A stretch of 64,000 nt of DNA from an uncultured Thermoprotei archaeon (GCA_965367815.1 CBDUKN010000009.1:21085-85084), one strand, 5' to 3'. Counted from the stretch's first letter, positions 2,502 to 35,924 are shown. Translations and numbers: made by a program. Notes: generated from the letters alone by a model not told the origin.

Positions 2502-2562
2502 GTCTTCGCAATTTCCTATATAAGGCAAAATAAAATAAATATAGGAGGCAATATCATGTAAA

Positions 2563-2751
2563 GTGATGCCAGAACGAATAGTATGCTCTAAATGTAACTT
2601 CGTATTGTATAAGGGCAACGACCCTGTATCTCCTGAAGAAGTAATCAAAAAGTACGGCGGAAGATGCCCTCGCTGCCTTTCGAGGCTTTCGCTTTCTCCA
2701 AGAACCCTTGAAATTACGATTTTCAAGCGTAAACTAAGGTATTTACTATAA
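2563..2751 (+). CDS. Small zinc-ribbon protein
   Basis: CSKC and CPRC pairs; co-oriented upstream of aglB. Confidence 0.7.
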   Translation: MMPERIVCSKCNFVLYKGNDPVSPEEVIKKYGGRCPRCLSRLSLSPRTLEITIFKRKLRYLL

Positions 2752-2764
2752 AAGGTGCTATATC

Positions 2765-4927: not shown

Positions 4928-5109
4928 GAATAGTATTTCTCTCCAAAAGCAAGTTTTTTCATAAGTCTCCTATATTTACCATATCTGTCTTCAGGCGAAA
5001 ACTTAGGTGGATGAGGTACTTTAGTTTTCTCTCCACACAGTGGACAATACTCTTCTAGTGTATATATTTTACAGCGAGGACACTTTTTAAGTAAACTTTT
5101 AGGGCTCAT
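4924..5109 (-). CDS. nop10: H/ACA RNP protein Nop10
   Basis: CPRC..YTL..CPLCG, PHPPKFSPEDRYGKYRR. Confidence 0.96.
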   Translation of the reverse strand: MSPKSLLKKCPRCKIYTLEEYCPLCGEKTKVPHPPKFSPEDRYGKYRRLMKKLAFGEKYYS

Positions 5110-5912
5110 TTCTTCAACTCAATTCTACTGAATGATGCCTTACAACCTAGTTTCTGAGCGTAGGAGAGCACCTCGTCGACTATTTCCTTTAAACACTTCT
5201 CAGCTATCTTGTAGTTAGGCGCTGTTAGGTCCATACGGTATCTAGGAGCCCCCATAGTATACAGCCTTGTCTTAGTCTTTGGATACTTCTCTGCAACTTT
5301 AAGCGGTATCTCTAAGATTTTCTTTATGTCTTCTACGCCCTTAGGACTATACGACTGAATAACAAAGATTCCACTTATTTTAGCTTCAGGAATTTTTATT
5401 CTCTCTTTGGCGAGTGCCAGTGCTACTTTTGCCCAGTCTTCTGAAACTCCTGCCTCTAGAGCGGCTTGAATTCCTCTTTTAGCTATTTCCTCAAATCCCG
5501 CATATATCTCTCCGTAGTAGTCTTCTAGCTTCCAGCCTAATTCTCTATAAGCATCGTCAATGGTTTTTCCCATTTTTTCAGCTATTATTTCTAGTAACTT
5601 ATGCGCTGATACAGCCCGCTTCCACTCCCTCATTTTTCTAGCTCTTTCCTGATCAGTAACTCTCTTCAGTGATACATCAACATGTCCTCTTCTTCTATTA
5701 ACTCTAATAACTTTGAATACTTTTTTCTGTCCTTCACGCATTACATCTCTTATACTCTTAAACCACGAGTGGGATGCTTCGCCTACTGGACAGTAAGCTT
5801 CTATTCCACCATACTCATCCAGAGTCACGAATGCTCCATGCTCAAATATTCTTTTTACAGTACCTACTACTAACTCGTTTACTCGAGGCAGTTTCTCGCG
5901 TTTCTTTATCAT
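5106..5912 (-). CDS. eif2a: Translation initiation factor 2 alpha subunit
   Basis: N-terminal S1 domain (GAFVTLDEY, HVDVSLKRV), GAPRYR; conserved gene context. Confidence 0.96.
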   Translation of the reverse strand: MIKKREKLPRVNELVVGTVKRIFEHGAFVTLDEYGGIEAYCPVGEASHSWFKSIRDVMREGQKKVFKVIRVNRRRGHVDVSLKRVTDQERARKMREWKRAVSAHKLLEIIAEKMGKTIDDAYRELGWKLEDYYGEIYAGFEEIAKRGIQAALEAGVSEDWAKVALALAKERIKIPEAKISGIFVIQSYSPKGVEDIKKILEIPLKVAEKYPKTKTRLYTMGAPRYRMDLTAPNYKIAEKCLKEIVDEVLSYAQKLGCKASFSRIELKK

Positions 5913-5936
5913 ATTGACAGCACCTAATTAATGACG

Positions 5937-6134
5937 TTATTCAAGTATTTTAATTATTTTGGCTTCAATCTTACACTTTCCGCCAGTGGGTCTAGCTAAA
6001 ACACGGTTACACACAAGACATCTTACAACAATTGACGCATGGTCGAAAATAATCTGTTCTGTACCGCAGTCAGGGCACCTGACTTTAACAAACCTACTTT
6101 TCGGCTCAGGTATCAATATTTTACGTTTTTTCAT
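5937..6134 (-). CDS. rps27e: 30S ribosomal protein S27e
   Basis: [13 protein letters not shown]...[10 protein letters not shown]. Confidence 0.97.
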
Positions 6135-6143
6135 AATCTCACC

Positions 6144-6428
6144 TTAGACTATTTCTATTCTCTTGAGCCTAATACCTTTCTTATGATAAGTGTACCCGCA
6201 GACTCTACATGTCAGTTTGAGAGTCTGCTTCTTTGTAACTTTGGCGAATCTCTTTTGTTCAGGTTTTCTCTTCGAACCATAACCTTTCTTCTTTGCAGCA
6301 TATCTTCTCTCTCCCTGAGCTAAACTTCGTCTCTTACCATGCTTATAGAGACTTACAGTATGCTCTGTGTGTTTCCTGCATCTCGGACAATATGTTCTGA
6401 TAACTCTTGGTACCTTCATTGTCTCCAC
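6144..6428 (-). CDS. rpl44e: 50S ribosomal protein L44e
   Basis: [31 protein letters not shown]. Confidence 0.97.
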
Positions 6429-6508
6429 ATAGCTATTTTACACAACTTATTAAATATTACTCTACTACACGCATTTCAGCTTAATTAGAGACCCCTTCGA
6501 CCTTAAGC

Positions 6509-7033
6509 TCATTTAAGAACTTCGACTAACGTTATTTTATCAGATGGAATTACTCTGAGAGCTTTCAAAGGAAGAACAACTACATCACCTTTAGAAAAAG
6601 GTCCTAGAATTAAGTTCTCTAAATAAACTTTATGTAAAGGTTCTTTAAAGACCACTAAAGCCAGTTTTGTCTCCTCTTCTTTTTCTACCGTTTCAACAAC
6701 TTTTTCTCTACTAATATATTTTGAATAAATTTTCTTTAGATGCTTCAATACTTCAACTTCTTCTACAGATAACTTATCTTCATCTATCTCTACTCCCAAG
6801 AAAAATTTTCCTAATATTTTGACAAGCCTTATGTACTGCAAAAGATTTAGTAATTTAATTAAGTTACCGCTTTCCTTAATGTTTCCTATCTTATTTGTTA
6901 TTTTCGAATAAAAGTCTTTATTAATTGAAGCTATATCATCACTTTTTATTTCATTTGCTATTATCTCCTCTATTTGCTGGATAAGAGATATATCATTTGA
7001 TAAAGAATCTTTTTTCTCTGATATATTTTTCAA
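6509..7033 (-). CDS. Probable GINS subunit (Gins15-like)
   Basis: Position between priS and rpl44e as in the conserved archaeal cluster; helical N-domain and C-terminal GPFSKGDVVVLP B-domain motif. Confidence 0.7.
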   Translation of the reverse strand: MKNISEKKDSLSNDISLIQQIEEIIANEIKSDDIASINKDFYSKITNKIGNIKESGNLIKLLNLLQYIRLVKILGKFFLGVEIDEDKLSVEEVEVLKHLKKIYSKYISREKVVETVEKEEETKLALVVFKEPLHKVYLENLILGPFSKGDVVVLPLKALRVIPSDKITLVEVLK

Positions 7034-8151
7034 TACTCATCCCCTACCACTTCGGCAGCTCCTCTTAGAATAAGATACAGCCCCACATTTATAGGTAATT
7101 TAACTACTCCGTTTCTTTTATCCAAAGTGTAATTCAATATTTTTTCAGGAGCATCCTTCAATTTAACCTTAATGTATTCGTTAGAAGATAAAGGAGAAGC
7201 CTTTTCTAGGGGATCAAATAGATCTAAGTCATCTATTATGGAGACAATCATTCCTGTTTTTCCGTGAAGCGAGAGAGGAAGCCTAATTAAACGCTTTATG
7301 TCGACTGTAACTCTTTCATCTATCTGGCACCCATAACGCTCTATACACTCATTTACTAATATATCGACTAATTTTTTCTTCCGAGCTAGTTTTTTGTACA
7401 CTGATTCAGGCGTTCTCACACTGAGCTTTTCGTATGCTGTAAACATGAGTCTATTAATCCATCCATAATTTTCCCAGAGCTTAGCTTTTACAAGCGAAGG
7501 AAAACTTAAGCCTAAACCTCTAACATAGTTTACTACTTCTCTTCTAGCATCTTGGTCTAGCGAATATACTTTTTCAGATAAAACATGTATGTGGAAACCT
7601 CTGTGCCCGGAGAAACATACTAGTAGCTCGCTTCGCGAAAAACCGAAGTCTATTAAGAGAAAATCGAGAAGCTTATTTGTCTCCTCTTTAGCTACTTCTA
7701 GGCATTCATCACAGACCCAGGACACTGTTCTTAAAGCTTCACTTCCACAGACAGGACATGCGGGAGGAGGAGCACCATTACCGCTGTTTCCACAATTAGC
7801 GCAGAACCACTTGTCATGTTTTTTCTTACATTCTGTAGGAATGTGGTCCACGTCTATGTCGAAAACTAGTTCAGCACCTTTCCACCCTTTCTCCTCCATT
7901 GTTGGAGCATCTGGTCTTTCATAGAAAGCTGTCGAGTAATATACATGAGCTGGAACATGCTTCCTGAGATATAGTGAAAGCTCATTTACGGACTTAAAGG
8001 CAGTGTGTCTGACCATGCCTTCTTTATTGAAAAACATGAAGCCGAATTCTCTTTGCTCTATTTTTTCTACACTGAAGGGCGATAAGTTCTTGTAGTATCT
8101 CCTAAATATTTTCATCACAAAATTTAACGATTTATTTTTCTCTTTTTCCAT
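7030..8151 (-). CDS. priS: DNA primase small (catalytic) subunit
   Basis: REFGF, ELVFDIDVDH, FSGHRGFHI, IDERVTVDIKRLIRLPLSLHGKTG; Cys-rich Zn insertion. Confidence 0.96.
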   Translation of the reverse strand: MEKEKNKSLNFVMKIFRRYYKNLSPFSVEKIEQREFGFMFFNKEGMVRHTAFKSVNELSLYLRKHVPAHVYYSTAFYERPDAPTMEEKGWKGAELVFDIDVDHIPTECKKKHDKWFCANCGNSGNGAPPPACPVCGSEALRTVSWVCDECLEVAKEETNKLLDFLLIDFGFSRSELLVCFSGHRGFHIHVLSEKVYSLDQDARREVVNYVRGLGLSFPSLVKAKLWENYGWINRLMFTAYEKLSVRTPESVYKKLARKKKLVDILVNECIERYGCQIDERVTVDIKRLIRLPLSLHGKTGMIVSIIDDLDLFDPLEKASPLSSNEYIKVKLKDAPEKILNYTLDKRNGVVKLPINVGLYLILRGAAEVVGDEY

Positions 8152-9178
8152 ACTTCATCAACCTCAATGCCAGCCTATAGTATTGTAGTGGGTGCTTCAC
8201 TCTCTTACACAATTTATTAGGATAACAGAAACCTAAAGCTTTCATATTCTCACACTTAAACGTAGTATACCGAATACCAGATCCCCTCAATCCAGCTATA
8301 TGTTCAACTTGATAACGTGTCTTGCGCTCATCAAAATCAGGAGCACTGCTGAACAACTCTACTACTTCATCAACAGTTTTCCCTATATTTAGCAAGAAAG
8401 CTGTTATAGCAAATCTGGCTGCATGCGGTACATTCACTCCTCTTTTAATATCATTCATAATTTTAACCATACATGGTGGAATAACTGTAATATTCTCGTC
8501 AGATATTTTAACTGCAGCATGTTCGTCTATTTCTACAGGCTTTAAATATTTTTCGCATAAATTAATTAAATATTGGACCTCCTCGGGAAAAATTTCTCTA
8601 ATAAGTTCTTTATTCGATAAGGGTTGGTCAACCATATTTAATATTTTAATTCTTACTGCCTCCTGTAAAATTCTGTTTAATTGGTTTCTAGTAATTAAAA
8701 CATAACCATTCTTTATTACCTGATTTATAAGACTCCAAGGTCCACTCAATTTTGCCGCGTACTTCAAGTAGTCTACGAAGTGTAGCGAATAAAATTTTGC
8801 TCCATAGACTTCCTCTTCTCTTATACCGATGTTGAACTCTTCTTTAGCAAAACTAAGTATAAAATCTTCTGGTTCTTTACTAAGTAAAGCGTAGTACTTT
8901 TTAGCTTCGTGTACAGCAAACTTACTATTGAGTAATGTATTTGAAACAGTTCTTAGGAATAAAACCGATAAATAAAAAACTAGTAGATTTCTTAGAGGAT
9001 CATGTATTTCTATAAGATAGTTTCTATGGTTTTTTCTCATAAAAACTGATTCTATCTCTCTAATAGTTTCCTCTACTAGACTTTTGTCTCTTCTAATTAC
9101 ATCTAAATCTACCTTAATGTTCTTCAAGTAGTCTATAGCCTTTTTTGTAAAAGGATACTTTAGCCATAATTCTTCCAT
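8132..9178 (-). CDS. priL: DNA primase large subunit
   Basis: KYPF, PPCM, H.ARF, PDFDERKTRYQVEHI, C-terminal Fe-S cysteines, HPLQYY. Confidence 0.95.
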   Translation of the reverse strand: MEELWLKYPFTKKAIDYLKNIKVDLDVIRRDKSLVEETIREIESVFMRKNHRNYLIEIHDPLRNLLVFYLSVLFLRTVSNTLLNSKFAVHEAKKYYALLSKEPEDFILSFAKEEFNIGIREEEVYGAKFYSLHFVDYLKYAAKLSGPWSLINQVIKNGYVLITRNQLNRILQEAVRIKILNMVDQPLSNKELIREIFPEEVQYLINLCEKYLKPVEIDEHAAVKISDENITVIPPCMVKIMNDIKRGVNVPHAARFAITAFLLNIGKTVDEVVELFSSAPDFDERKTRYQVEHIAGLRGSGIRYTTFKCENMKALGFCYPNKLCKRVKHPLQYYRLALRLMKYGKREK

Positions 9179-9263
9179 TTCCGTAGACTAGTAGACTTAG
9201 TCTCTATAATTTTAAATTAATGAGAGATAAGAGAAAATATTATTTACGTAATACGTAGGTTAT

Positions 9264-9596
9264 CTAGTCGTATTCTCGCCAAGTGTAGCCGCACTTAGTG
9301 CATCTAAAGAACCTTGTAGGCGCTTCGTCAGCTCTTCTAGTTTGCACCATCCACCAGTAAGCCTCATTGTGTCCGCACTTCGGGCATTCAGCCTTAGTTT
9401 TCGGTAAAATTTTTAGCTCAACAGGAGTTTCGACAATTATTGTCTTGTCTTTAACAGTATGTTCTATTCTTTTCTCTTCTCTAAGCGAAACTCCTTTAGG
9501 TAGTTCCTTATAGCCGCATTTTCTACACACTAAAAACGTTTGATTTCCTTCTCTCTTAGGAATCATTAATGAACCACACTTAGGACAGAAATTCAT
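9264..9596 (-). CDS. tfs: Transcription factor S (TFS)
   Basis: Two Zn ribbons; QTRRADEAPTRFFRC. Confidence 0.96.
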   Translation of the reverse strand: MNFCPKCGSLMIPKREGNQTFLVCRKCGYKELPKGVSLREEKRIEHTVKDKTIIVETPVELKILPKTKAECPKCGHNEAYWWMVQTRRADEAPTRFFRCTKCGYTWREYD

Positions 9597-9612
9597 TATC
9601 TCACCCCCTTAG

Positions 9613-10125
9613 CTACTTAATCATTCTAACCGAAGACCTAGCTCCACATGCCTGACACTGTAAATAAAGCATTCTCTTCTCTCTTATTAAAATAGTATCT
9701 GGCTCACCGCACACTGGGCATAGAACATAATTTTTAACATACCTTTCTATTATCGCGTCTATAGTTCTTTTTCTGTGTTCACCGTGTATTATAGCCATAC
9801 GTCCTTCAAGATATCCTGGCGCACCCAGTTCTCTTAACAGATATTTCAATAAGTGCTTAGGATCTCTATTTAGGATATTACATATTTCCATGAAATTCTG
9901 TATGACTATTTTTCTGCCTATAACGAGAACTTCAGCCTTCGGTATTTCAAATCTCTCGCGATAAGTTCTTTTTTCAGGTAGCTGCTTAAATGCCCGATCT
10001 AGCAGTGCATTATAATTATATATAATGCTACCTTTGCTCATCATGACCGCTTGTGTAGTTAAGCTACTCTGCTTCATAAACTTTCCGCTATTGATAAAAT
10101 ACTCAGCCGACTGTTTAGTCTTCAC
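9613..10125 (-). CDS. eif2b: Translation initiation factor 2 beta subunit (true start probably downstream)
   Basis: ERFEIP, NRDPKHLLKYLLRELG, YVLCPVCGEPDT...CQACGA. Confidence 0.93.
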   Translation of the reverse strand: MKTKQSAEYFINSGKFMKQSSLTTQAVMMSKGSIIYNYNALLDRAFKQLPEKRTYRERFEIPKAEVLVIGRKIVIQNFMEICNILNRDPKHLLKYLLRELGAPGYLEGRMAIIHGEHRKRTIDAIIERYVKNYVLCPVCGEPDTILIREKRMLYLQCQACGARSSVRMIK

Positions 10126-10156
10126 TAATCGGATACGGGGGCTTTCATCATTGTGT

Positions 10157-11206
10157 TTATTCTGTGCGACTACTTTGACTCCACTTAATAATATTTACGA
10201 GACATTCTCTCAGCTCTTTTACTCCTATACCTTTCAATGCCGATATTAAAAAACATTTAGTGTAGCCTTTTTCTTTCAAATATTTAAGAGAATTAATTAC
10301 CGATTTAATATCAGCTGCATCTATTTTATTCAAAACTATAACTATTTCTTTTCCTTCAAAGTATTTAGATATATCCTCTAAGACTTTAAACTGATAGCTA
10401 AGAGGGAAGCCGCATGATTCACTTGGATCGACCATGTATACTATTACTCCCTTCAAGTGTTTAAGTGCTAATATAGCTTGGCGCTCCATTTTATTTCTTT
10501 CTGAAAGAGGTCTATCAAGAAGGCCGGGAGTATCTATTACTTGTATCAGTAAATCCTCTGGGTTTAGCCTAATGTGTCCTATGGACAGTTTCTTAGTAGT
10601 GAAAGGGTAGCTAGCTACCTCCGATTTAGCAGTTGAAATAGAGTTGACTAGAGTAGACTTTCCAACGTTAGGTGCTCCAGCTATGACTATTGTAGGCAAA
10701 GATGGGTCAATTGAAGGAAACTTTTTGAGTATCCTTTGATATTCTCTAATTCTAGCAAGCTCTTCATCCATGCTTTTAACAACAGAGTATACTCTCCCTG
10801 TGTACTCTCTTCTGAGTTTTCGAGCCTCCTTTACGTCTGCTATGTATCTTGCTCTATCGAGATACTCTCTTCTTAATTTATATAAAATCTTTATGCACGC
10901 CATAACTTTACCCATGCGTTTTCTAAAGTCATCCATGTCTACTACTGTGTAAGCTAACTCTCTGTAGAAATCGTCAAGTTCATCTATTCTCGGTATCGAG
11001 TATAGCCCCTCCTTAATTCTCCTCACTATATTTTCATGAAGTACTTTAATGTAGTTTTGAGTAAGAGTTTTACTTCTTTTAACTGATGCCCAGCGGATAG
11101 GACTTTTAACTTCTAGACGCTTCGCTCTGTTAAGAGCTATTCTAAAGACCTCCTCCCCATTTTTAGGGACTAATTTTATTTTCGAGAAAGGATTAGTAAA
11201 CACCAT
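10157..11206 (-). CDS. NOG1-family GTP-binding protein
   Basis: GAPNVGKS, YPFTTK, DTPGLLDRP, NKID, SA motifs. Confidence 0.92.
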   Translation of the reverse strand: MVFTNPFSKIKLVPKNGEEVFRIALNRAKRLEVKSPIRWASVKRSKTLTQNYIKVLHENIVRRIKEGLYSIPRIDELDDFYRELAYTVVDMDDFRKRMGKVMACIKILYKLRREYLDRARYIADVKEARKLRREYTGRVYSVVKSMDEELARIREYQRILKKFPSIDPSLPTIVIAGAPNVGKSTLVNSISTAKSEVASYPFTTKKLSIGHIRLNPEDLLIQVIDTPGLLDRPLSERNKMERQAILALKHLKGVIVYMVDPSESCGFPLSYQFKVLEDISKYFEGKEIVIVLNKIDAADIKSVINSLKYLKEKGYTKCFLISALKGIGVKELRECLVNIIKWSQSSRTE

Positions 11207-27296: not shown

Positions 27297-27394
27297 CTAA
27301 ACCACTCAACTAGACTAAATTCTAGTAAATAAAATCATTCACTAAAATTAACCTCGTCCACAAAGCTTATATCGAACCCAAGCAAAATACTCTC

Positions 27395-27479
27395 GCCGGG
27401 GTCGCCTAGCCTGGTTAGGGCGGAGGGTTGCTAACCCTCTGGCCGAAAGGCCGCGTGGGTTCAAATCCCACCCCCGGCG
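27395..27479 (+). tRNA. tRNA-Ser(GCT)
   Basis: GCCGGGG/CCCCGGC; GAGGG-TT GCT AA-CCCTC; long variable arm. Confidence 0.96.
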
Positions 27480-27577
27480 CCTATTCTAGTAGACCTTTTA
27501 CCTCACGAAAACATATACATTAACTTAAGAGATAAAATAGAGAAATGCTTATATACAGTTTCATGATAAGAGTTGAC

Positions 27578-27671
<94 letters not shown>

Positions 27672-27708
27672 TTTAAGAAAAAGAGATTTTTCTCCGATGT
27701 AAGTTTCC

Positions 27709-27753
27709 GGGTGTTGCCAAGTTAATGTGCCTGCAGGCAACGCCCTTTATATA
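27709..27753 (+). promoter_or_regulatory. Inverted repeat GGGTGTTGCC/GGCAACGCCC abutting a TTTATATA box
   Basis: Seen directly, about 25 nt upstream of the integrase-remnant ATG. Confidence 0.55.
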
Positions 27754-27776
27754 TGACTCTCTGATAATATCCCTGG

Positions 27777-27968
27777 ATGAAGGATTCTTGGAGAGACAGA
27801 GTAGACTTAGCTAAAATAGACGACGAGACACGGTACCGGATACTCGACTACGTTTTAGCGAAAATAGGGTCGTACAGGGAGCTGGGCTGCGATTGAACCT
27901 ACATCTACAGGCTGAAGACACGGAAGCCCAGAGTACCGGACAGCTTTCTGAAGAGGCTTCCCGAATAA
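27777..27968 (+). pseudogene. Truncated N-terminal HTH region of a crenarchaeal-type integrase
   Basis: MKDSWRDRVDLAKIDDETRYRILDYVLAKIGSYRELGCD*TYIYRLKTRKPRVPDSFLKRL; internal TGA at 27894; located immediately 3' of a tRNA. Confidence 0.6.
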
Positions 27969-28019
27969 GACCTCTGAGGCCACTTCACTGTGAGGGCTGG
28001 GAAAAAACACGGAGAAGCC

Positions 28020-28400
28020 TCAGGGCTCTCTGCTAGGCTTTACTCTGAGCACGTCTAAGAAGCCTTTATCGTGCAGTCGAGAGAGCAGCGCGTCAGCCTC
28101 CCTCCACTCGATCTTCATCTCTCTTGAAAGAGAATTCACAGTGCAGAAACCCATTAAGGTGAGCTTAAGGTGCCTCTACTTCCTCTTCGCTCAGCTTCCT
28201 AAGCTGGGCGTTGATTCTCTGTGTGTCGGGAGTCTCCTGTAAAGTACCTGTAGAGGCTCCTGGAGATACTCTTCTCTCCTCCTTCTCCGTGAGCCTCCGC
28301 CTCCAAGAATCAAGTCCCTCTACCAGCAGCCTTATGGTTTAGTTCCTCGTTTTCTTTTCTCAGCTTGCTGAGTATTTTCTTGTACTGTACTATGAGAGCC
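28020..28400 (-). pseudogene. Frameshifted coiled-coil / winged-helix gene fragments
   Basis: Fragment LTLMGFCTVNSLSREMKIEWREADALLSRLHDKGFLDV resembles a wHTH; upstream frames are interrupted. Confidence 0.4.
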
Positions 28401-28697
28401 CTATACTTTTCTTCCTGAGACCTCTTCTTGAGCCAGATCACCTGCCGCCACCTTTCTCCCGAGTATCTCTAGCCACGGGTTGTCCTGCACCCACGAAGGC
28501 AACTTGGGCTCCGAAGAGACCCCCGCTGCGGCGCCTTCTCTGCCGCGGAGGAAGTCCCTTATCTCGGCTAGGAGCCTGTTCTGCTCCTCTAGGAGCTGGT
28601 TCACTGCGGCTGCGAGCGAAAGCCCCCGTGTCCTCGCGTAGGCCTCGAGCCTCTCCTTAATGCTCCTAGAGACCTTGATAGTAGTATACTCAACCAC
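28401..28697 (-). CDS. Ribbon-helix-helix (CopG-like) protein
   Basis: YTTIKVSRSIKERLEAYARTRGLSLAAAVNQLLE. Confidence 0.75.
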   Translation of the reverse strand: MVEYTTIKVSRSIKERLEAYARTRGLSLAAAVNQLLEEQNRLLAEIRDFLRGREGAAAGVSSEPKLPSWVQDNPWLEILGRKVAAGDLAQEEVSGRKV

Positions 28698-29028
28698 GGT
28701 AAAGGCTGTTGTTACTTAAAAGGTATATCGGAAGCATACCTGCTCTAGGAAGAAGAGTATGCCGTAAGTATACTGCTCAAAGTACTCTTCTAGGGTTCCG
28801 GGTCGGGGAGATAATTAAGGAGAGAGAGCCTGAGGCCCTCCTCCACTCTAGGAGGAGAGCGGTTCCCAGCAGGAGCACTGTACTATATGTAATGCTGACC
28901 TAGTGACACTAGGCTTCTTCGCACTCCACTGGGTTTACATGCTCACGAAACGAGCACTTCAAACAGCACAAACAACGATAGATATGCTTATATAGTGCTG
29001 GACATAGTGTTAGCGCAGGGAGCCCGGC

Positions 29029-29424
29029 ATGGACCCTACAACTGTTCCTCTACACATGTACTTCCTTCAGCGTTTGGTAATTTCAATCGCGTTCCTAATT
29101 CCCCTTATAGTAACTTGGTGGCTCAAGAGCACCCGTTTAAAGGACACTCCCCGCCCTCTTACCTACATTCTAATAGGTTTCGCTATAGGCTTCCTAGCTA
29201 ATATTATCATAGGCCTTCTGGGGGCCTATGTTTTTAAACTACCATTACTTCCACTGCTACTATATCAAAAAGACCTACCTATGCAGTACCTCAGCCACAT
29301 AGTATTTATTTACAATACTATATTTAATGTTGCATACGTGGCTTCGCTATTCGCATCACTCCTACTAGTAACATACGGAATGTATAAGTTAGCGCTATGG
29401 AGCTCAGATAAGAGAACTCCGTAG
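29029..29424 (+). CDS. Small membrane protein (3 predicted TM helices)
   Basis: Three hydrophobic segments; TTATATA box upstream. Confidence 0.7.
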   Translation: MDPTTVPLHMYFLQRLVISIAFLIPLIVTWWLKSTRLKDTPRPLTYILIGFAIGFLANIIIGLLGAYVFKLPLLPLLLYQKDLPMQYLSHIVFIYNTIFNVAYVASLFASLLLVTYGMYKLALWSSDKRTP

Positions 29425-29859
29425 ATAGTTTCTTATTTAGCTCATTTAAAGAGACTAAGCCTACATCCTAGTTACAGGTATCCTCTTTACCTTACCAAGA
29501 TCCTTGTTGTCTGAAAACATGAAACCTTATATCTAACTTCTTAACAACTTACAATTAGGGATTTCAACAGGAACCTTTAACTATACTGTCACAGCGATAA
29601 CATTATGATTTACATTCCACTTAGTGCTGCAGTGATTCAGAAAGTGCTCGCGATGGCTCTTAGTGAAGCCATAGAGCGTACTGTCACATTTTTTAACTTC
29701 TATGTAAGTTAGTATAAGCAAAACTAGCAAAGAATTTATAGAGAAGGGTGAGAGCAATGCCCAGAAACATCAACAAATAATCTATTTTCTCAAAACAATT
29801 CCTTTCTCTCAATATCTTTGCTCCCAGCTAACTTTCTGGTCTTTTAATTTCATACAGTG

Positions 29860-30006
29860 TTATCCCCTTTTTATACCCCAGTACCTTATTCTAGGATTTA
29901 TTTTGCTCTCTTCAACAGCTTGTATATCTTCGTCTTGCTTATACCACTCTTTATTGCTCCACCATGGATTAAGATCATTTAAGATTATCTCGAGACTGTT
30001 TTCTCG
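29860..30006 (-). pseudogene. N-terminal remnant of a COG1373-type (AAA_14/DUF4143) ATPase
   Basis: LEIILNDLNPWWSNKEWYKQDEDIQAVEESKINPR has the NPWW signature; in frame with, and directly after, the stop of 30007..30285. Confidence 0.6.
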
Positions 30007-30285
30007 TCACTTTTTACTTCTGAGTCTGCGTTCAAGCAATACCACCCTTCTGGAGTTAATGTCTACTTTTGCTCTAAGTTCATCTATAGCTAGCTCTAAT
30101 TTCCTAACTTTCTTATCTAGCTCTTCTAAGCTCGGGCGCCTTTTTCTACTATGAACATACTCTTTAAGAGCACAGAGTATTACGGCGTGAACAGTTAATC
30201 CCTCCTCCTCAGCTATTTTTTGAAGACTCTTGTACAGTTCTTTAGGCATATTTACGGGATACCTTACTCTGCTCACACTAAACAT
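30007..30285 (-). CDS. Ribbon-helix-helix protein with C-terminal coiled coil
   Basis: RYPVNMPKELYKSLQKIAEEEGLTVHAVILCALKEYV, then LEELDKKVRKLE heptads. Confidence 0.8.
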   Translation of the reverse strand: MFSVSRVRYPVNMPKELYKSLQKIAEEEGLTVHAVILCALKEYVHSRKRRPSLEELDKKVRKLELAIDELRAKVDINSRRVVLLERRLRSKK

Positions 30286-30359
30286 TTTATACTTAAAGTA
30301 TAAAAATTTTATACTAAGAGACTAAAAAGATCTTGCTAAACAAGGAAATTCATTTTACC

Positions 30360-30670
30360 ATAATTAGCTTCAGACAGAACGATCGCCTTTGCTTAGCTAA
30401 GCTCAGTTGCTTTAACCAGAACAGGAAATTGTAGTGGTGTTCTGCAATGTGTCATTGCAGATTCAATGCAGATCCCACTCCCTACATAATTTTTCTCATT
30501 AAGTTGATGTAGTGGGATCTACATTGATCGCTGACCCGAGGACACACAAACTCTCCTTCAGTTTTTTAGTTTCTATACCACTAGTCCCACTTTAGGTCTC
30601 ACATCAATTATCTCTAGATTCTTGGACAGAGACCGCGCGCTATATGCTGAAACGCTGCGGCGCCAGCTCG
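30360..30670. repeat. Cluster of palindromes and inverted repeats in non-coding DNA
   Basis: GCTTAGCTAAGC (30391-30402); TCTGCAATG/CATTGCAGA (30441-30461); CAATGCAGATCCCACT/AGTGGGATCTACATTG (30464-30479 / 30511-30526). Confidence 0.75.
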
Positions 30671-30891
30671 GCTAGATTTACTGCTCGTATTATTTAAATC
30701 TTCTTATAAATATTTGATGACATTAAGTTAAGTTTTGCTGTATATCTGTAGAACAGACTTTGCAAAATCTTAAACTTAACAGCGCCGAACAACCGCAAGG
30801 AAATGCGCCGCACGCTACATAAATTTTTACAAAATACCGAAAAAGAGAAAAATAGCAGAAATTTTATAAAATATGATGTCCTTTACTTTCT

Positions 30892-31371
30892 GTGCTCCTG
30901 CTAGTGCTCGACGTCTCTAAGGGCCCAGGCGGCACTGTTTTCGCAGTCATAGTCGTCGAGGAAGGAAGCTATAGAAAACTAAGGTCAATAATCAGTAGCT
31001 GGATCAAACACTATAAGGACTTGCCCAGTAGACGAAGAAGAAAATATTTGCTTGTTTTTGAAAGAAAATTTAATAAAATTAAAGACATGTTGTATTGCTA
31101 TGGATGTTTTACTAGATTTGATAGTGTTTTAAGGATTATTGATTTATTTGCTGGTAAGTCAAAGTTAATTATTGTCGACGATAAGTTTTACACGCTTATC
31201 AAAAGCAAATATGGCGGTAAAGTCGTGGCAGAGGGGAAAGCAAAGCCCTATTATTCAGCATTTATTTTACTCGCCGATAATTTAGCTAACTTAGTGAGAA
31301 TTAAACTAAGTAAAGCGAAGTCTACTCTAAACAAATATAAGATACTCGAAGAATACAGGAAGAAGAAATGA
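30892..31371 (+). CDS. DUF3800-like (RNase H-fold) putative nuclease
   Basis: N-term LVLDVS..G..VFAVIVV, HYKDL, LIIVDD, C-term ILLADNLANLVR resemble the DUF3800 DESG / H / IQLAD pattern. Confidence 0.55.
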   Translation: MLLLVLDVSKGPGGTVFAVIVVEEGSYRKLRSIISSWIKHYKDLPSRRRRKYLLVFERKFNKIKDMLYCYGCFTRFDSVLRIIDLFAGKSKLIIVDDKFYTLIKSKYGGKVVAEGKAKPYYSAFILLADNLANLVRIKLSKAKSTLNKYKILEEYRKKK

Positions 31372-31473
31372 CCCCTCACTCAGCGGGCCCATCGGACCCC
31401 CAGCTCATCTACACATCGCCAGGGTCGCCTCCGCCCGCATCATGCCCCGGGGCCCATCGGGCACAAAGCCCTC
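31367..31473 (-). ncRNA. Candidate structured RNA convergent with the DUF3800-like gene
   Basis: GC-rich ~105 nt; stems GGGC/GCCC, GCGGGC/GCCCGC, GACCC/GGGTC; 11-nt direct repeat GGGCCCATCGG (31385, 31450); TTTTTATA box at 31497-31504 on minus strand; T-rich end. Confidence 0.6.
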
Positions 31474-31706
31474 AAACACTATCTCGCCGCAAACGATATA
31501 AAAATTACGTTTTAAGCAAAAAGTATTGTTTCTCACGAAGCCTCTCCTTTATCTTTAATTGTTTGCTAGCCGTCAGCACACATGCAGCATATGAGGCTAT
31601 TTTCTTACTGCGGGAACGTCCGCTCTTGTGCCAGGTTTTCGCTTATGTTCGGGTTTATAAGTCTCAGCTGAAGCCGCTGTGAGGAAAGTAGACGGCGGGT
31701 GAGACT

Positions 31707-31976
31707 TTGAGGTGTTTCCGCCTAGACAGGCCCTGCGCCTTTAGAGACCAGAAAGGCTTCTGCCAGTTCAGCTCTCAGGTGATCACCGAGGACTGTCCTG
31801 AAGACTGCCCATATCTCTGGAGACAGTTCTTCGGGAAGAAAAGTAGCAGCAGACTGCACAGTTCTCTGCGTATACGAGCTCCCAGACGAGTGCCCGAAGA
31901 AACGCCGCCTCCTAGAAAAGGCTCTGAGAAAATGAAAAATACCCTTTTATTCAAAGTTTTCAGTATTTTGCTATAA
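31707..31976 (+). CDS. Small Cys-rich hypothetical protein
   Basis: Five Cys in the first 34 aa; GGTGA SD-like and TTTATAA upstream; C-terminal half low-quality. Confidence 0.4.
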   Translation: MRCFRLDRPCAFRDQKGFCQFSSQVITEDCPEDCPYLWRQFFGKKSSSRLHSSLRIRAPRRVPEETPPPRKGSEKMKNTLLFKVFSILL

Positions 31977-32027
31977 ATCTCTATATTCTTGACTAAAGTA
32001 TTATACTAACTTTTACTCTTATTCCTT

Positions 32028-32912
32028 TTAAATATCTCTGATGATCTTTTGCAATACTCTGCATGTAAGATCCCGCGTCTGAATTAGTTCGTCTAACACT
32101 TCGGCTTTAGAATCCAAATTTTTCATCATGCCGAGAAGAATACGTTTAACTCTCAACCCATGTGCCCCTATTACGGATCTACGCTTATAAATTCTCTTGA
32201 TTAGCTCTTTATCCTGTGTCGAGAGCTCGAAGCCGTGCTTAGTAAGGACATTAATTATGCTCCCAGCAGAATCTACCTTAAGTTTAGAAATATTATTTCC
32301 CCTAACGTAAGCATAAATATAGCTTAGTGACTCCAAGATTCTGCACAACTGAACTAGCTTTTCTTCCATTGATAAAATTTCGTGCTCACGGGCTAAATCA
32401 GCGAGAACAATCTTTAAGACTTCTATTAGCCTCTTATCGCTCAGCTTTGACAGTTTATTAAGCTTTTTAAAGGACTCCTTCACGCAGTTCCATGACTTCG
32501 TCCTCTTCTTCCCCGCTGGAAGGAAAAACAGCGTATACTCTGAATTCACTATAGTGCCTGAAGGTTTTAGTGAGCCAGTGTCACCTAAGGGATTCAGCCC
32601 AGAGCTCATGCGGGTTACCATCCTTAATGCTGTGGACGAGTCTGGCCATATAGCATCCACGTGATATACTGCATTGATAATGACCATATCTGGGTCATAT
32701 ACCTTTAATAGTCCTACAGCTTTTCGGAGTTTTTTCAGAGCTTCACTATGAAGTATACAATGTGCTTCGTATATACTCCACCTTCTCGGATCCGGCTGTA
32801 AATCAACAGCAAAAACCGTCTCTATACATAAATCTTCAAGTGGAGATAACAAAGCTACATCCGAAATCGTCGATGAAGCTGGTGTGTGACCATTAGTCGC
32901 CAATATGGCCAT
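32028..32912 (-). CDS. HEPN-domain protein (ApeA/MAE_28990-like), possibly 5'-frameshifted
   Basis: C-terminal helical domain with L..ILESL and IYKRRSVIGAHG (Rx4-6H); a 42-codon ORF (32855..32983) in another frame may be the true N-terminus. Confidence 0.65.
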   Translation of the reverse strand: MAILATNGHTPASSTISDVALLSPLEDLCIETVFAVDLQPDPRRWSIYEAHCILHSEALKKLRKAVGLLKVYDPDMVIINAVYHVDAIWPDSSTALRMVTRMSSGLNPLGDTGSLKPSGTIVNSEYTLFFLPAGKKRTKSWNCVKESFKKLNKLSKLSDKRLIEVLKIVLADLAREHEILSMEEKLVQLCRILESLSYIYAYVRGNNISKLKVDSAGSIINVLTKHGFELSTQDKELIKRIYKRRSVIGAHGLRVKRILLGMMKNLDSKAEVLDELIQTRDLTCRVLQKIIRDI

Positions 32913-32993
32913 AGCGATAGTTCTTGAAGAATCTCTTCCTTAAAGCCTGAACTATTTAATTTAATGCAGACAAAGTGTATCATCAGTATTCTT

Positions 32994-34589
32994 TTATTCT
33001 TCTATAGGAAATCTCATAGGAATACCTTGTTTCTTAGATAATTCACGTGCAACAGTTTTTCTTTCATCATCATTAGTGAGTGTAGGTAGGAGTAGTAGCA
33101 TTTTCAATTCTTCGGTATCGGGTTTGAAGTCTAACAATAGGTATTTGCGGCTAATTGATCTTAGATGCTCCTCTACTTCTTCTTTCATTAGAGCCGGTGT
33201 TCCCGCTAGAACTACCAATACGTTCTCTCCTATTATCTCACTTAGTTTCTCTTTTAGCTGATCTTTAGTTAAAGGCTCATTGCTTGCAAGTATTTTAACA
33301 GAATATATACCATCTTCAATATTGACAATAAGTTCTTCGCTTCCTGATAGCGATAGTTCATAAGCAGGTTCTAGTCCTAATAGATTCAAGAACTCAAATA
33401 CCGCTTCTTCTGTTTTTCTGTAAAACTCTTCACTTGACAATTTACTTATATCAATAGGTTTAGAGAGAACTCTTCTTCTAATTACTTCTAGGGGCGCCTT
33501 GCTTTCATACCATTTTATTATCTCATTAGTTACTATCTGCACTACTTCTCCTCTACGCCCTCCTGTTTCCTCATATATCTTCTGATACCATTCTTCTGGA
33601 AAAATAGGTATTATATCAGTTTTATATACTATTGAAGCTACTTTAGATATTTTTTCTACTAACTTTTTAATATCTTCTATTGTAAAATCTTTGATAGCCA
33701 GCTCAAACAGCTTGAATCTATTTAAACTATCATACTCTACTAGGATATCATTTAGTCTCTTTTTCTCGCATGCTAGAACTAGAAGAAGGCTTGGTATATC
33801 TCTTTCATAAAGCGACATAAGTAGTGAAAGGAATCGCTGTCTTTTAGAAAAGTCCTCTATTCCTAGTACTTCTAGCTCGTCTATTAATAATATGGATATT
33901 CCTGCCTGACTCAAAGTTTTTAGCATAAAAGCTAACTGCGCTAGAGCGTCATGTTCAGAGAGATTAGGAAGAATTATCGTATGTAGATACTCTTTCTTCT
34001 CGAACAGTTTTTTAAGTCGATCCTCGGCGTCAACATCTCCTTTAGCAGCTTTAATCAAGAGCTTGGATATTTCTTTGCCGAAAATTCTACTCATGCTTTT
34101 CAGAGTTCTTTCTTCGAAGTTTTCTGGACTTATAGTAGATTCGATTTTCATTATCTGTGATGCTAGTCCTATCCAAGGAGCCGGGCCTCCCTCTATTATA
34201 ATACCTTTAATAATGTTTATCCACGAAATGCCCTGTTCTCTCAGCGAAATATATGGACAAAGAGCCACTCTAACTTTATCAAAAGGCGGCACTTTTTCTT
34301 CAGCATATTCTTTAATAAGCTGCAAGGCGAAAGTTTTTCCTCCTCTAAAGGGAGCTGTTATTACCACTACTTCAGGTCTTCCAGACTCTTTTACACAGTC
34401 TACTTTTTCTGATATAGCCTCGATAATGTCGTCAACTGCTACAGCTATTGTTGAAGGAGAAGGAGGCACAACACCATTTTTACAATGGTTTAGTATTTTT
34501 GCTGCATCTATCTTTTCGGCCATTTTCTGCTCGAATGCCACTTTTATCTGAGAAATTTTCTGCAGAATTTTTACAATATCTCTAGACAA
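32994..34589 (-). CDS. P-loop ATPase, BrxD/DUF2791-like, with possible degenerate restriction-endonuclease-fold C-terminus
   Basis: Walker A APFRGGKT, large helical insert, Walker B ILLIDELE, SLNRF, GGRRG sensor region; C-term EEAVFEFLNLLG alpha/beta domain. Confidence 0.65.
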   Translation of the reverse strand: MSRDIVKILQKISQIKVAFEQKMAEKIDAAKILNHCKNGVVPPSPSTIAVAVDDIIEAISEKVDCVKESGRPEVVVITAPFRGGKTFALQLIKEYAEEKVPPFDKVRVALCPYISLREQGISWINIIKGIIIEGGPAPWIGLASQIMKIESTISPENFEERTLKSMSRIFGKEISKLLIKAAKGDVDAEDRLKKLFEKKEYLHTIILPNLSEHDALAQLAFMLKTLSQAGISILLIDELEVLGIEDFSKRQRFLSLLMSLYERDIPSLLLVLACEKKRLNDILVEYDSLNRFKLFELAIKDFTIEDIKKLVEKISKVASIVYKTDIIPIFPEEWYQKIYEETGGRRGEVVQIVTNEIIKWYESKAPLEVIRRRVLSKPIDISKLSSEEFYRKTEEAVFEFLNLLGLEPAYELSLSGSEELIVNIEDGIYSVKILASNEPLTKDQLKEKLSEIIGENVLVVLAGTPALMKEEVEEHLRSISRKYLLLDFKPDTEELKMLLLLPTLTNDDERKTVARELSKKQGIPMRFPIEE

Positions 34590-35107
34590 ACTACATCACC
34601 TCTAGCTCTATACACTCGAATACGAGGATCTATTTTTCTTAATTCAAACAAGGCAATTTTAAATCTCAAGGGGTCTATTTTGATGCCCATTTCTTCTTCA
34701 ACTAGAGTTCTTAGAATATTATCCTCTGCTACACTATAGCCTGCAGCTTTAAGCTTCTCGTATGACTTCAAAACAGCCTCGTGTAGCTTATTTAAATCTA
34801 TTTTTTCTGCGTAAATCAATCTCTTTTCTAGACGCTCAAGCTTCAAATTAATGTCTCTAAATAGCTCCCTCACAGAATCTTCCACTATTTTATAAGTCAA
34901 GTATACTTTATAACCTCTACCAACTCTAATTTCCATTATATATCCTTTTTCCTTGAGACTCTCGTAAGCTTTAGCGTACTCCTCTCCTAAATTGGTTATC
35001 TTTGACTTACTTATTCCGCTAAAATAGTGTTTCTTCAGAAGCTCTAACAACTTTCTTTCATAAACTGACAACTCCTCCATAGCCTGTTCACTTGTACTCC
35101 TTTTCAA
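34571..35107 (-). CDS. wHTH - coiled coil - probable wHTH protein
   Basis: LSVYERKLLELLK...SLKEKGYI....GRGYKVYLT, then INLKLERLEKRL, then a second helix-rich domain. Confidence 0.7.
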   Translation of the reverse strand: MKRSTSEQAMEELSVYERKLLELLKKHYFSGISKSKITNLGEEYAKAYESLKEKGYIMEIRVGRGYKVYLTYKIVEDSVRELFRDINLKLERLEKRLIYAEKIDLNKLHEAVLKSYEKLKAAGYSVAEDNILRTLVEEEMGIKIDPLRFKIALFELRKIDPRIRVYRARGDVVCLEIL

Positions 35108-35411
35108 CTACTATCAATAATGTACGTGTTTTTAGGACCGCTTTTACTTGTTTACGCTTTAATTCAAAAGGCAAAATAAATTCTTTATAAAAATCTCTCC
35201 CCTCAATATCAGTAGCGGTTACATGTATGCGATTTCCGTGGACTTTGACCTTAACATCCTCTTTTCTCACAGGAGGCAACTCTATAATAATTTTAACACA
35301 CTTCCCGTCATCGTAAATCTCGCTGTAGGGCTCCTCTATTAACCAGTAACCACTTCTTCGTACTCCAAAGTCATCAAACCAGTCATAATCCTCCTCGAAC
35401 CCTGAACTCAC
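35088..35411 (-). CDS. Small heat-shock (Hsp20/alpha-crystallin) domain protein
   Basis: EPYSEIYD...KIIIELPPVRKEDVKVKV...FYKEFILP...KA.L....L.I..EK. Confidence 0.8.
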   Translation of the reverse strand: MSSGFEEDYDWFDDFGVRRSGYWLIEEPYSEIYDDGKCVKIIIELPPVRKEDVKVKVHGNRIHVTATDIEGRDFYKEFILPFELKRKQVKAVLKTRTLLIVVEKEYK

Positions 35412-35570
35412 GATAAAACTATTGCGCAGTCTCTTAGAAAAACATTTCCTCTAATGTCTGCACCTAATTAGGCCCACATATTAGCAGTATATTTATTTTG
35501 AAAATCTCCCGATATTCGCTTCAAATACTTCGCAGACATCATTATTTAAATACTTAACGAAAAGAATACG

Positions 35571-35924
35571 ATGTCTTACTTTGTTGCAGACTCCTCGGGA
35601 CTTGAATGCATCTACAGAATCATCAAAAAGAATAAAACTCCTTTAGCTAGATACAATATAATTCATGTCTCTTCTGAGACCGCTTCTTCCTCAAGAATCA
35701 GCGGCAAATTCGCCAAAAAGCACCTAGTAGTGCATAAAGTACCAGCACTTAAAATAATGAAAACTATGAACTTACTCAAAGTGAGCTATGAAACAGCCTC
35801 GGCCCTATCATTAGCTAAAAGACTAAATGCAATATATCTAACTGCAAGCAAAGAAGCATACATTAAAGCCCGTAAATATGGACTAAAAGCTCTTTTAGTT
35901 GAGTATTCACTAAATACTGTTTAG
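35571..35924 (+). CDS. Degenerate PIN-domain-like protein
   Basis: FVADSS N-terminus; SALSLAKRLNAIYLTASKEAYIKARKYGLK matches the PIN C-terminus but with LTAS instead of LTxD. Confidence 0.55.
   Translation: MSYFVADSSGLECIYRIIKKNKTPLARYNIIHVSSETASSSRISGKFAKKHLVVHKVPALKIMKTMNLLKVSYETASALSLAKRLNAIYLTASKEAYIKARKYGLKALLVEYSLNTV

Follow-up and report, generated by a model that had tools for sequence, protein, structure and literature searches.

A vertically inherited operon for an alpha-crystallin-domain protein, a helical protein and an ORC/Cdc6-clade ATPase in one Thermoproteota genus, and the truncated HEPN-like gene beside it

The described proteins with which the locus reported here is best compared are the ATPases of BREX and Shango and, by fold, the archaeal Orc1/Cdc6, TnsC and PAB2304/SSO1545 proteins. 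BrxD has been described as an ORC-Cdc6 AAA+ protein in which strand 2 is followed by a helical insert; this ATPase stands alone, has no further domains and is tightly linked to the BrxHI helicase, and the same article reports that no type-2 BREX was found in archaea (PMC12839542). The main text of a second article gives the prevalence of known defence systems in Thermoproteota as low, and that main text makes no mention of Hsp20, BrxD, Shango, Mrr or PRC (PMC12988326). Our locus lies in a 64,000-nt stretch of DNA from an uncultured Thermoprotei archaeon (GCA_965367815.1 CBDUKN010000009.1:21085-85084; hereafter the window, with positions counted from its first letter). Its ATPase resembles BrxD in a predicted helical insert after strand 2, and differs from it by an extra C-terminal domain of ~145 residues and by two small partner proteins.

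A preliminary description, made from the sequence alone, had read the locus as one undescribed four-gene defence or stress-triggered system composed of an Hsp20 protein, a winged helix-turn-helix (wHTH)/coiled-coil protein, a BrxD-like ATPase and a HEPN protein. We find instead a conserved operon of three genes, the trio, adjoined by a fourth open reading frame (ORF) that belongs to an inserted island. That a conserved trio operon, an unrelated truncated island ORF and a DNA-switch mechanism for the trio together explain the locus is, in our judgement, probable. The trio falls among BrxC/BrxD-like ORC-clade ATPase modules, which are already known; its alpha-crystallin-domain (ACD) partner is unusual, and its relatives are unexplored. 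Our literature search on alpha-crystallin or Hsp20 genes accompanying an ATPase in defence operons found no such trio described, with supplements outside that search, where candidates could be missed.

A three-gene operon at one chromosomal site

Four ORFs of the same direction are indeed present on the minus strand, at 35411..35088, 35107..34571, 34589..32994 and 32912..32028, with lengths of 107, 178, 531 and 294 aa, in that order. The first (gene 1 of the trio, 35088..35411) encodes the 107-aa ACD protein, recognised by Pfam HSP20 and by its orthologues in the loci L031 and G001 introduced below. Gene 2 (34571..35080, from the ORF and the database gene calls) encodes a helical protein of 169 aa, or 178 aa if counted from a TTG at 35107, and gene 3 (32994..34589) encodes a 531-aa AAA+ ATPase of the ORC/Cdc6 clade, assigned from Pfam PF10923, an AlphaFold2 (AF2) model and fold matches. 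Taken as longest ORFs, ORF1 and ORF2 overlap by 20 nt and ORF2 and ORF3 by 19 nt, followed by an 81-nt gap from ORF3 to ORF4. The overlaps of 19-20 nt given in the preliminary description hold in this sense, but the 20-nt one needs the TTG start at 35107, and a start at Met10 (35080) leaves a 7-nt gap instead. Since the database gene calls give ORF2 as 169 aa, starting at Met10, and since the sole possible start of the L031 orthologue is the ATG equivalent to this Met10, the 20-nt overlap is probably a start-codon artefact.

The genes for the ACD protein, the helical protein and the ATPase form an operon that is vertically inherited at one chromosomal site within one Thermoproteota genus. In G001, a genome of the same genus, all three stand at the same site, with 64%, 77% and 63% amino acid identity, respectively. 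Two metagenome loci show the same arrangement, L031 (ATPase 90% and ACD protein 91% identical) and L032 (ATPase 61% identical). At each of these sites the trio lies between a tRNA pair and the genes for a TrmI-type methyltransferase and arginyl-tRNA synthetase (ArgRS), and the order is the same in G001 (L003), L032 and L031; in G001 the tRNA genes follow ~390 bp after the ATPase gene. The tRNA-spacer sequence of L032 is identical to that of G001, which means that L032 is not an independent lineage and that the three loci amount to two lineages beyond the window.

The trio is kept under strong purifying selection. Against L031, the ratios of nonsynonymous to synonymous substitution rates (dN/dS) are 0.033 for the ACD protein, 0.021 for the helical protein and 0.033 for the ATPase, compared with 0.083 for the flanking TrmI, all of these being rough values with dS close to saturation; a second value for the ATPase is 0.086. 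Upstream of gene 1, a 27-nt block (35430..35456, minus strand) is nearly invariant in the window, L031 and G001, with one mismatch each at G/A and G/T positions, and the spacer outside the block has diverged among the three. The T-rich core of the block lies ~27-31 nt ahead of the gene 1 start codon, which is the expected place of a crenarchaeal TATA box for a leaderless transcript. We regard the block as a candidate promoter, with a B recognition element (BRE) and TATA box, or as a candidate operator.

The island and the truncated fourth gene

None of the three related trio-bearing loci (G001, L032 and L031) has a stretch of about 5.3 kb that is present in the window. Logan contigs of four DNA runs were aligned to 27300-35500 at 90% likeness, and those of three of the four runs (X1, X3 and X4) join 27698 straight to 32917 and leave out 5218 nt, the shorter side of the joint having 38-42 letters; joints at under 95% likeness may stem from other organisms. 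The island-bearing form is represented in run X1 as well, by a 912-nt contig that spans the right edge with 0 differences, and parts of the island are without contig cover in runs X4 and X7. The presence of the island is thus polymorphic in natural populations, many members being without it. One point weighs against this account: the 27698/32917 joint was made at 90% likeness, with what lies between recorded as not known, and may be less clean than it appears. The spacer that the joint implies is 103 nt, in agreement with the 118-nt spacer of L031.

From the synteny break and the contig joints, the island occupies 27699..32916 (5218 bp), and its right edge lies 4 nt upstream of the ORF4 ATG. 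The preliminary description had placed the operon at the edge of an island, but it is ORF4 itself that lies inside the island. A right edge at 33024, drawn from comparison with L031 and entailing that the island had replaced the last ATPase codons, was ruled out by the population joint at 32916/32917. Because of the position of this joint, the stretch 32917-33024 is taken as ordinary between-species divergence.

The island is the remnant of a tRNA-linked integrated element of the tyrosine-integrase type. Directly to its left lies a tRNA-like gene (27578..27672, plus strand; Rfam tRNA 31.5 bits at 27603-27669), which is conserved in G001, L031 and L032, and 105 nt from this gene is an N-terminal integrase pseudogene (27777..27965, plus strand) with in-frame stops at codons 40, 64 and 67. 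Over 77 residues the integrase stub is 88% identical to the start of an intact 422-aa Phage_integrase (PF00589) protein on contig C8 of the same genome (G000:C8), and both the integrase start and a 160-nt internal stretch of the island recur in the element that lies there beside a tRNA-Thr gene. A search of the island ends for direct or inverted repeats that might mark att sites gave short chance-level matches only, and the island DNA had no match in a phage collection.

The element on contig C8 (~102.1-110.9 kb; L038 6100-14924) is apparently an intact integrated element beside tRNA-Thr(tgt) that reaches the contig end, and it encodes, besides the 422-aa tyrosine integrase, a primase-polymerase with PriCT_1, a 502-aa wHTH/P-loop protein and a VWA-domain protein. 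Within the island, a gene at 30007..30285 (minus strand) encodes a CopG-type ribbon-helix-helix protein (Pfam RHH_1 27.4 bits, cut-off 20.5), and another at 28401..28697 (minus strand) a weakly ribbon-helix-helix-like one (RHH_1 E 0.0069, 16.8 bits, the same cut-off of 20.5 not being reached); the island also contains ORFs without a family. The tRNA-like gene was missed by the default scan of ARAGORN, which gave an odd, implausible model when introns were allowed; it may contain a short intron, and the reading of its anticodon is ambiguous.

ORF4 (32028..32912, minus strand) is the cut-off C-terminal 54% of a mobile-element-borne gene, lying at the right edge of the island. Its homologues, P0004 and the copy in genome G021 (L005), are 66-70% identical and extend ~254 residues further in the N-terminal direction: P0004 has 439 aa and ends inside the family alignment, the G021 copy (L005 1-1116) is a 371-aa open-ended frame, and the family as a whole is ~548 aa long, of which the window keeps the last 294. 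The start Met of ORF4 is conserved across all three homologues, and the window frame closes 9 codons upstream of that ATG. The G021 genome is from a different family of the order, and its copy, 70% identical, stands beside a mini-MCM ATPase gene; a search for the trio ATPase in this genome, which is just 68% complete, gave no match. No second copy of ORF4 was found in its own genome, and a search for the P0004 family in viral contigs gave no match. In the full-length family the N-terminal ~400 residues have no family match, and this is apparently a mobile-element protein, so far uncharacterised, whose end is HEPN-like. ORF4 was also considered as the C-terminal half of a split integrase and rejected as such, since it does not match Phage_integrase and its last 40 residues contain no tyrosine.

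The HEPN assignment of the preliminary description stands in part. The Rx5H motif is there, as RSVIGAH (R245-H251) in ORF4 and RSVLGAH in G021, that is, in both of the sequences that cover it. In a VIA-align search of 48,161 Protein Data Bank (PDB) chains, HEPN domains came top for residues ~150-294 with Z 8.1-9.9 (AbiA C-terminal domain 8oz7, 9.9; AMPylated HEPN toxin 8xdj, 9.0; 1wwp, 8.6; AF_0298 2hsb, 8.6; Csm6 6tug, 8.5), values under ~13 being common for helical bundles and not decisive. The AF2 model used has a mean predicted local distance difference test (pLDDT) of 47.9, with residues 1-137 under 50. On the other side, ORF4 matches no HEPN family of Pfam (E up to 1) and nothing in NCBIfam, and a PDB profile search with its family returned chance-level matches only. 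HEPN_Apea (PF18739) has 0 matches in the ORF4 genome, and hhalign of the ORF4 family against one HEPN_Apea member (from G255) gave a probability of 0.1%; the sole pointer to HEPN_Apea is an Atlas cluster at 0.92, 11% of whose members carry it. From the motif and the fold match to a low-confidence model, the last ~145 residues of ORF4 can be called HEPN-like. They align to the HEPN domains of AbiA, HEPN-MNT toxins and Csm6 (Z 9.9, 9.0 and 8.5) and carry the Rx5H motif; no MNT or other partner adjoins ORF4.

Independently of the trio, the host might have kept ORF4 as a HEPN toxin or RNase that still works by itself: the ORF retains an intact 294-codon frame from a conserved Met as well as Rx5H, and at least one natural population still contains the island-bearing form. 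We nevertheless think this unlikely, as the protein is without 254 N-terminal residues of its family, has no identified partner antitoxin, lies in a decaying island and yields a model with confidence below 50 over residues 1-137. ORF4 is probably a pseudogene, possibly a still working fragment.

These results bear directly on the four-gene system of the preliminary description, in which the HEPN RNase would be switched on by a signal-sensing ATPase and the Hsp20-like protein would act as a chaperone or sense stress. In its favour, the four genes share a strand with just 81 nt between the ATPase gene and ORF4, read-through transcription may occur, and ORF4 keeps its open frame, its Rx5H and a HEPN-like fold, with a dN/dS of 0.18 against the G021 copy. 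ORF4 is, however, missing from the three trio-bearing related loci and from the island-less contigs in three of the four runs, it is cut to 54% of the family length at the island edge, the G021 genome (68% complete) holds an ORF4 relative without an ATPase match, and the island integrase is dead. We consider a four-gene system very improbable. Since ORF4 is truncated at the island edge and the island is absent from many members, ORF4 is not a component of the operon; synteny and population contigs agree on a core trio with the HEPN-like gene as an unrelated insertion, which is what the preliminary description had itself named as the outcome that would undo it. In the island and its truncated HEPN-like gene we see the ordinary decay of a mobile element, a clean example of a decayed integrated element mimicking the extension of an operon, and a four-gene 'Hsp20-ATPase-HEPN defence system' is unfit for catalogues, being an accident of insertion.

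The ATPase and its partners beside described systems

The description of the third protein as a BrxD-like P-loop ATPase with a large helical insert and an LLIDELE Walker B motif holds well. It matches Pfam PF10923 BrxC_BrxD at 39.2 bits (cut-off 22.2), over residues 28-99 alone, which correspond to profile positions 5-76 of 414. Walker A (GGKT; GK[TS]), Walker B (LLIDELE; DE) and R291 are invariant in all seven aligned sequences. In the AF2 model (pLDDT 84.5), a helical insert of ~110 residues separates the second core strand from the strand of Walker B. VIA-align of residues ~26-366 placed the A. pernix ORC2 first (1w5s; Z 17.2, root-mean-square deviation 3.1, 255 aligned), then the S. solfataricus Cdc6/Orc1 (2qby_B; 16.6), TnsC (15.5 and 15.4), P. 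abyssi PAB2304 (14.8), SSO1545 (14.6) and the Acinetobacter BrxC (14.1 over 287 residues). The top seven matches make up an Orc/Cdc6 and TnsC group at Z 14.8-17.2, and the first ring-type AAA+ protein is NSF D2 at Z 13.6, the two ranges touching. Foldseek agrees, its top match being 2qby_B (E 5.7e-5). Sequence identity in the Orc/Cdc6, TnsC and PAB2304/SSO1545 alignments is 12-16%. The protein thus shares with archaeal Orc1/Cdc6, TnsC and PAB2304/SSO1545 its best-matching fold over ~26-366 and intact Walker A and B motifs, but it differs from Orc1/Cdc6, TnsC and the ATPase_2 proteins in its insert and in an alpha/beta C-terminal domain, both outside the matches, and in its occurrence in one genus only. 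Where Orc1/Cdc6 has a C-terminal winged helix, the model of our ATPase has this alpha/beta domain, which lies outside the fold-search alignment.

The C-terminal domain (~386-520) is modelled as a helix, three strands, helix, strand, helix and strand, with strands at 409-412, 418-424, 427-435, 456-462 and 482-488. This order of helices and strands would fit that of the PD-(D/E)xK nuclease core. The window ATPase has no D, E or K at the aligned nuclease catalytic positions; an SVK lies nearby, which is LVR in G001.

By sequence and fold, the window ATPase is a BrxC/BrxD relative, and it is not a BREX component. The likeness consists of the PF10923 match, a weak PADLOC match to BrxD (E 1.2e-4) and the BrxC fold match at Z 14.1; the differences are that the Pfam match is confined to residues 28-99 and that no helicase, methyltransferase or PglW gene stands beside the ATPase gene. 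This gene is flanked on one side by the other two trio genes, a 117-aa ORF, TrmI and ArgRS, and on the other by the island and tRNA genes. A PglZ (PF08665) search of the whole, 99.4%-complete genome gave 0 matches, the control search having matched two of 14 known genomes, and no helicase-sized ORF adjoins the ATPase gene, although no dedicated helicase profile was run. Because PglZ is lacking from the genome, no helicase is adjacent and the ATPase has an extra C-terminal domain, we agree with the preliminary description that this is not a BREX locus.

Shango is the other system to which the sequence points, SngB (PDLC03959) being the best PADLOC match of the ATPase at E 6.3e-6. That match covers residues 25-99 only, the stretch that BrxD also matches, and the other three window proteins match no PADLOC family; SngA (TerB) and SngC (helicase) were not found in the PADLOC scan of the four proteins.

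The ATPase has a narrow distribution. It falls into 3 clusters among 5.8 billion proteins, has five matches among 1.84 billion representatives, of which one alone is below 1e-10, and was found in two of the 61 related genomes searched, both of one genus.

Gene 2 had been described as a wHTH-coil-wHTH protein, for which we find no significant support. The helical protein has no significant family in Pfam, PADLOC or NCBIfam (best Pfam matches E 0.025-0.11), a PDB profile search gave chance-level matches only, and an Atlas search reached a best score of 0.89 against unnamed clusters. Among 5.8 billion proteins it too forms no more than 3 clusters; for two of these the longest contigs are given as 118235 and 39337, the same figures as for the ATPase clusters P0002 and P0003. 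A complex prediction for the ATPase, the helical protein and the ACD protein gave a score of 0.02 and a mark of 0.32, which count neither way.

The alpha-crystallin domain of gene 1 is well founded, with Pfam PF00011 HSP20 matching residues 34-105 at 27.9 bits (cut-off 20.8); ArsA_HSP20 is matched too, and the CS domain falls slightly under its cut-off. The protein stays below the NCBIfam equivalog cut-offs (archaeal Hsp20 NF041800, 45.6 bits against 140; NF041799, 24.4 bits against 100). On PF00011 the genome has three further HSP20 loci, with open frames of 148-176 aa and scores of 44-58 bits, against 23.5 bits for the ACD protein in the same search. It consists of an acidic-aromatic N-terminal tail of 25 residues (FEEDYDWFDDF), the alpha-crystallin domain and little more, ending 2-5 residues past the last strand of the domain in all three orthologues. 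Hsp20 proteins carry a C-terminal extension with an I-x-I anchoring motif. Because the genome holds three better HSP20 matches elsewhere and the ends of the protein are short, we read the ACD protein as an extra, stripped-down paralogue whose build would be nearer to that of an adaptor domain than to that of an oligomeric chaperone.

A rival reading is a proteostasis module, in which unfolding proteins would be captured by the ACD protein and passed to the AAA+ ATPase, a lineage-specific remodelling machine, and the helical protein would regulate the operon under heat shock. Bacteria and eukaryotes have small heat-shock proteins that work together with AAA+ disaggregases, and this general cooperation, together with an alpha-crystallin domain above the Pfam cut-off and three tightly packed, constrained genes at a housekeeping-type site, gives such a module some appeal. 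The ATPase, however, groups with the DNA-bound switches of the ORC/Cdc6-TnsC-BrxC kind (Z 14.8-17.2) and not with ring unfoldases (NSF D2 at 13.6, with touching ranges), the ACD protein has a short N-terminal tail and no C-terminal extension in a genome that already holds three canonical Hsp20 genes, and the distant relatives of the ATPase, described below, pair with nuclease and TGT genes. We regard a proteostasis module as distinctly unlikely.

Distant relatives and a possible role for the trio

An ATPase profile search of 401 genomes of the phylum gave a match in 60, mostly weak and at the level of the P-loop, and we examined the five best non-self loci. Their ATPases match the profile with E 1e-12 to 1.6e-20, and in all five the ATPase gene lies directly downstream of a gene of 210-232 aa whose product has weak wHTH matches or none. 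They come in two forms. The long forms, with ATPases of 594-614 aa in G126, G123 and G161, are arranged as triads (L028 1921-5290, L029 1392-4760 and L030 3325-5479), and in both of the assessable loci the first gene encodes a PRC-barrel/zinc-ribbon protein (PRC 21.4 and 21.7 bits, cut-off 21.2). In G161 (L030), the ATPase C-terminus matches Pfam Mrr_cat (E 8e-6) with D...EVK, residues that the other relatives and the window clade lack. The short forms, with ATPases of 310-316 aa in G085 and G444, follow a 217-aa wHTH-like gene and lie between two TGT-family (DpdA-like) genes.

The loci L026-L030 thus resemble the trio in a homologous ATPase, a small gene directly upstream of it and, in the two assessable long forms, a gene for a beta-rich protein in first position. 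They differ in that this first gene encodes a PRC-barrel protein and not an ACD protein, in middle proteins without detectable similarity to the helical protein, and in nuclease residues that are found in L030 only. The short-form loci, L026 (G085:C1) 2453-7035 and L027 (G444:C4) 5669-10275, hold a conserved four-gene cluster, in the order TGT-like-DUF6884 fusion (615-627 aa), 217-aa wHTH-like protein, BrxC_BrxD/ATPase_2 ATPase of 310-316 aa and TGT-like protein (297-304 aa), with a PLD-like gene nearby in L026. This cluster looks like a DpdA-type DNA-modification or defence locus. Neither the PRC-barrel/wHTH/ATPase-Mrr_cat triads nor the TGT-wHTH-ATPase-TGT clusters were found in print in our literature search.

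Taken together with the fold of the ATPase, these relatives lead us to a tentative reading of the trio, short of an even chance, as an ATPase switch that would be directed at DNA in the manner of ORC, TnsC and BrxC and may derive from defence. By analogy with those proteins, the ATPase would assemble on DNA when bound to ATP. The C-terminal domain, which by its position and by the order of secondary structure in the model may be a catalytically dead module of the restriction-endonuclease type, would read DNA without cutting it; the ATPase would be targeted to DNA by its partner, the small helical protein; and the ACD protein would serve as an adaptor holding a client or partner protein. The trio would derive from a wider family in the phylum, built like a DNA-targeting defence system, in which an ATPase-Mrr nuclease is joined by a wHTH protein and a small beta-rich one. 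We propose surveillance of foreign or modified DNA because one relative carries an Mrr nuclease and another is accompanied by DpdA-like TGT enzymes; in this genus the nuclease residues are gone.

A bolder form of this proposal makes the trio the nuclease-dead, domesticated end of an undescribed three-gene DNA-surveillance family in Thermoproteota, in which an exchangeable beta-rich sensor (ACD here, PRC-barrel elsewhere), a DNA-binding targeter and an ORC-like ATPase-Mrr protein that reads or cuts DNA would work together, with a sister branch associated with DpdA-like DNA-modifying enzymes. We hold this extended version to be rather unlikely.

Several results weigh against the DNA-directed reading and its extension. 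The preliminary description had likened the ATPase C-terminus to an inactivated restriction-endonuclease fold, and the alpha/beta build and the missing catalytic residues are in line with this; the domain, however, has no Pfam nuclease match, shows no signal against the C-terminal domains of the Mrr-bearing relatives (hhalign probability 0.2%) and lay outside the fold searches, which aligned residues 25-366; its candidate identity as a dead nuclease comes from the order of secondary structure in the model and from its position. The ATPase profile included P0005 and P0006, which are similar to the long forms, and the window ATPase itself comes no closer to P0005 than E 7e-8, with 26% identity over the ATPase core. 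None of the distant loci examined showed an ACD gene next to the ATPase gene. No detectable similarity links the helical protein with the distant wHTH proteins: the hhalign probability was 0.2%, and Smith-Waterman comparison with 300 shuffles gave a maximum z of 4.0, in one of five comparisons. Finally, a fixed site beside housekeeping genes and strong purifying selection fit a housekeeping role as well as they fit defence.

Such a role would make the trio a genus-specific accessory of replication, chromosome organisation or transcription, unrelated to defence. Its best fold matches are archaeal Orc/Cdc6 proteins, its site is fixed in three lineages, its dN/dS is equal to or lower than that of TrmI, no effector is recognisable, and the PADLOC matches are weak, partial and limited to the ATPase. 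Yet an ATPase present in two of 61 related genomes, of one genus, would be unusual for core machinery, its sequence signature is that of BrxC/BrxD and SngB and not of Orc, and its relatives sit with nuclease and DNA-modification genes. We judge a housekeeping DNA transaction rather unlikely.

The trio is in any case a strongly constrained, genus-restricted partnership of an alpha-crystallin-domain protein with an ORC/BrxC-type ATPase that merits modest attention, and it links to uncharted wHTH + ATPase(-Mrr) and TGT-associated clusters in Thermoproteota. If the trio were a true DNA-surveillance machine, its ACD protein would be a new type of adaptor for machines of this sort.

Two further observations concern the surroundings of the trio. 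Divergent from it, a 117-aa ORF at 35571-35924 (plus strand), without a Pfam family, occupies the same position in G001 and L031. In L031 and L032, a segment like 59.6-61.2 kb of the window sits between segments like 39.2-41.5 kb and the ArgRS side, and this difference in order implies, by comparison of these sequences, an ~18-kb rearrangement or insertion in the window.

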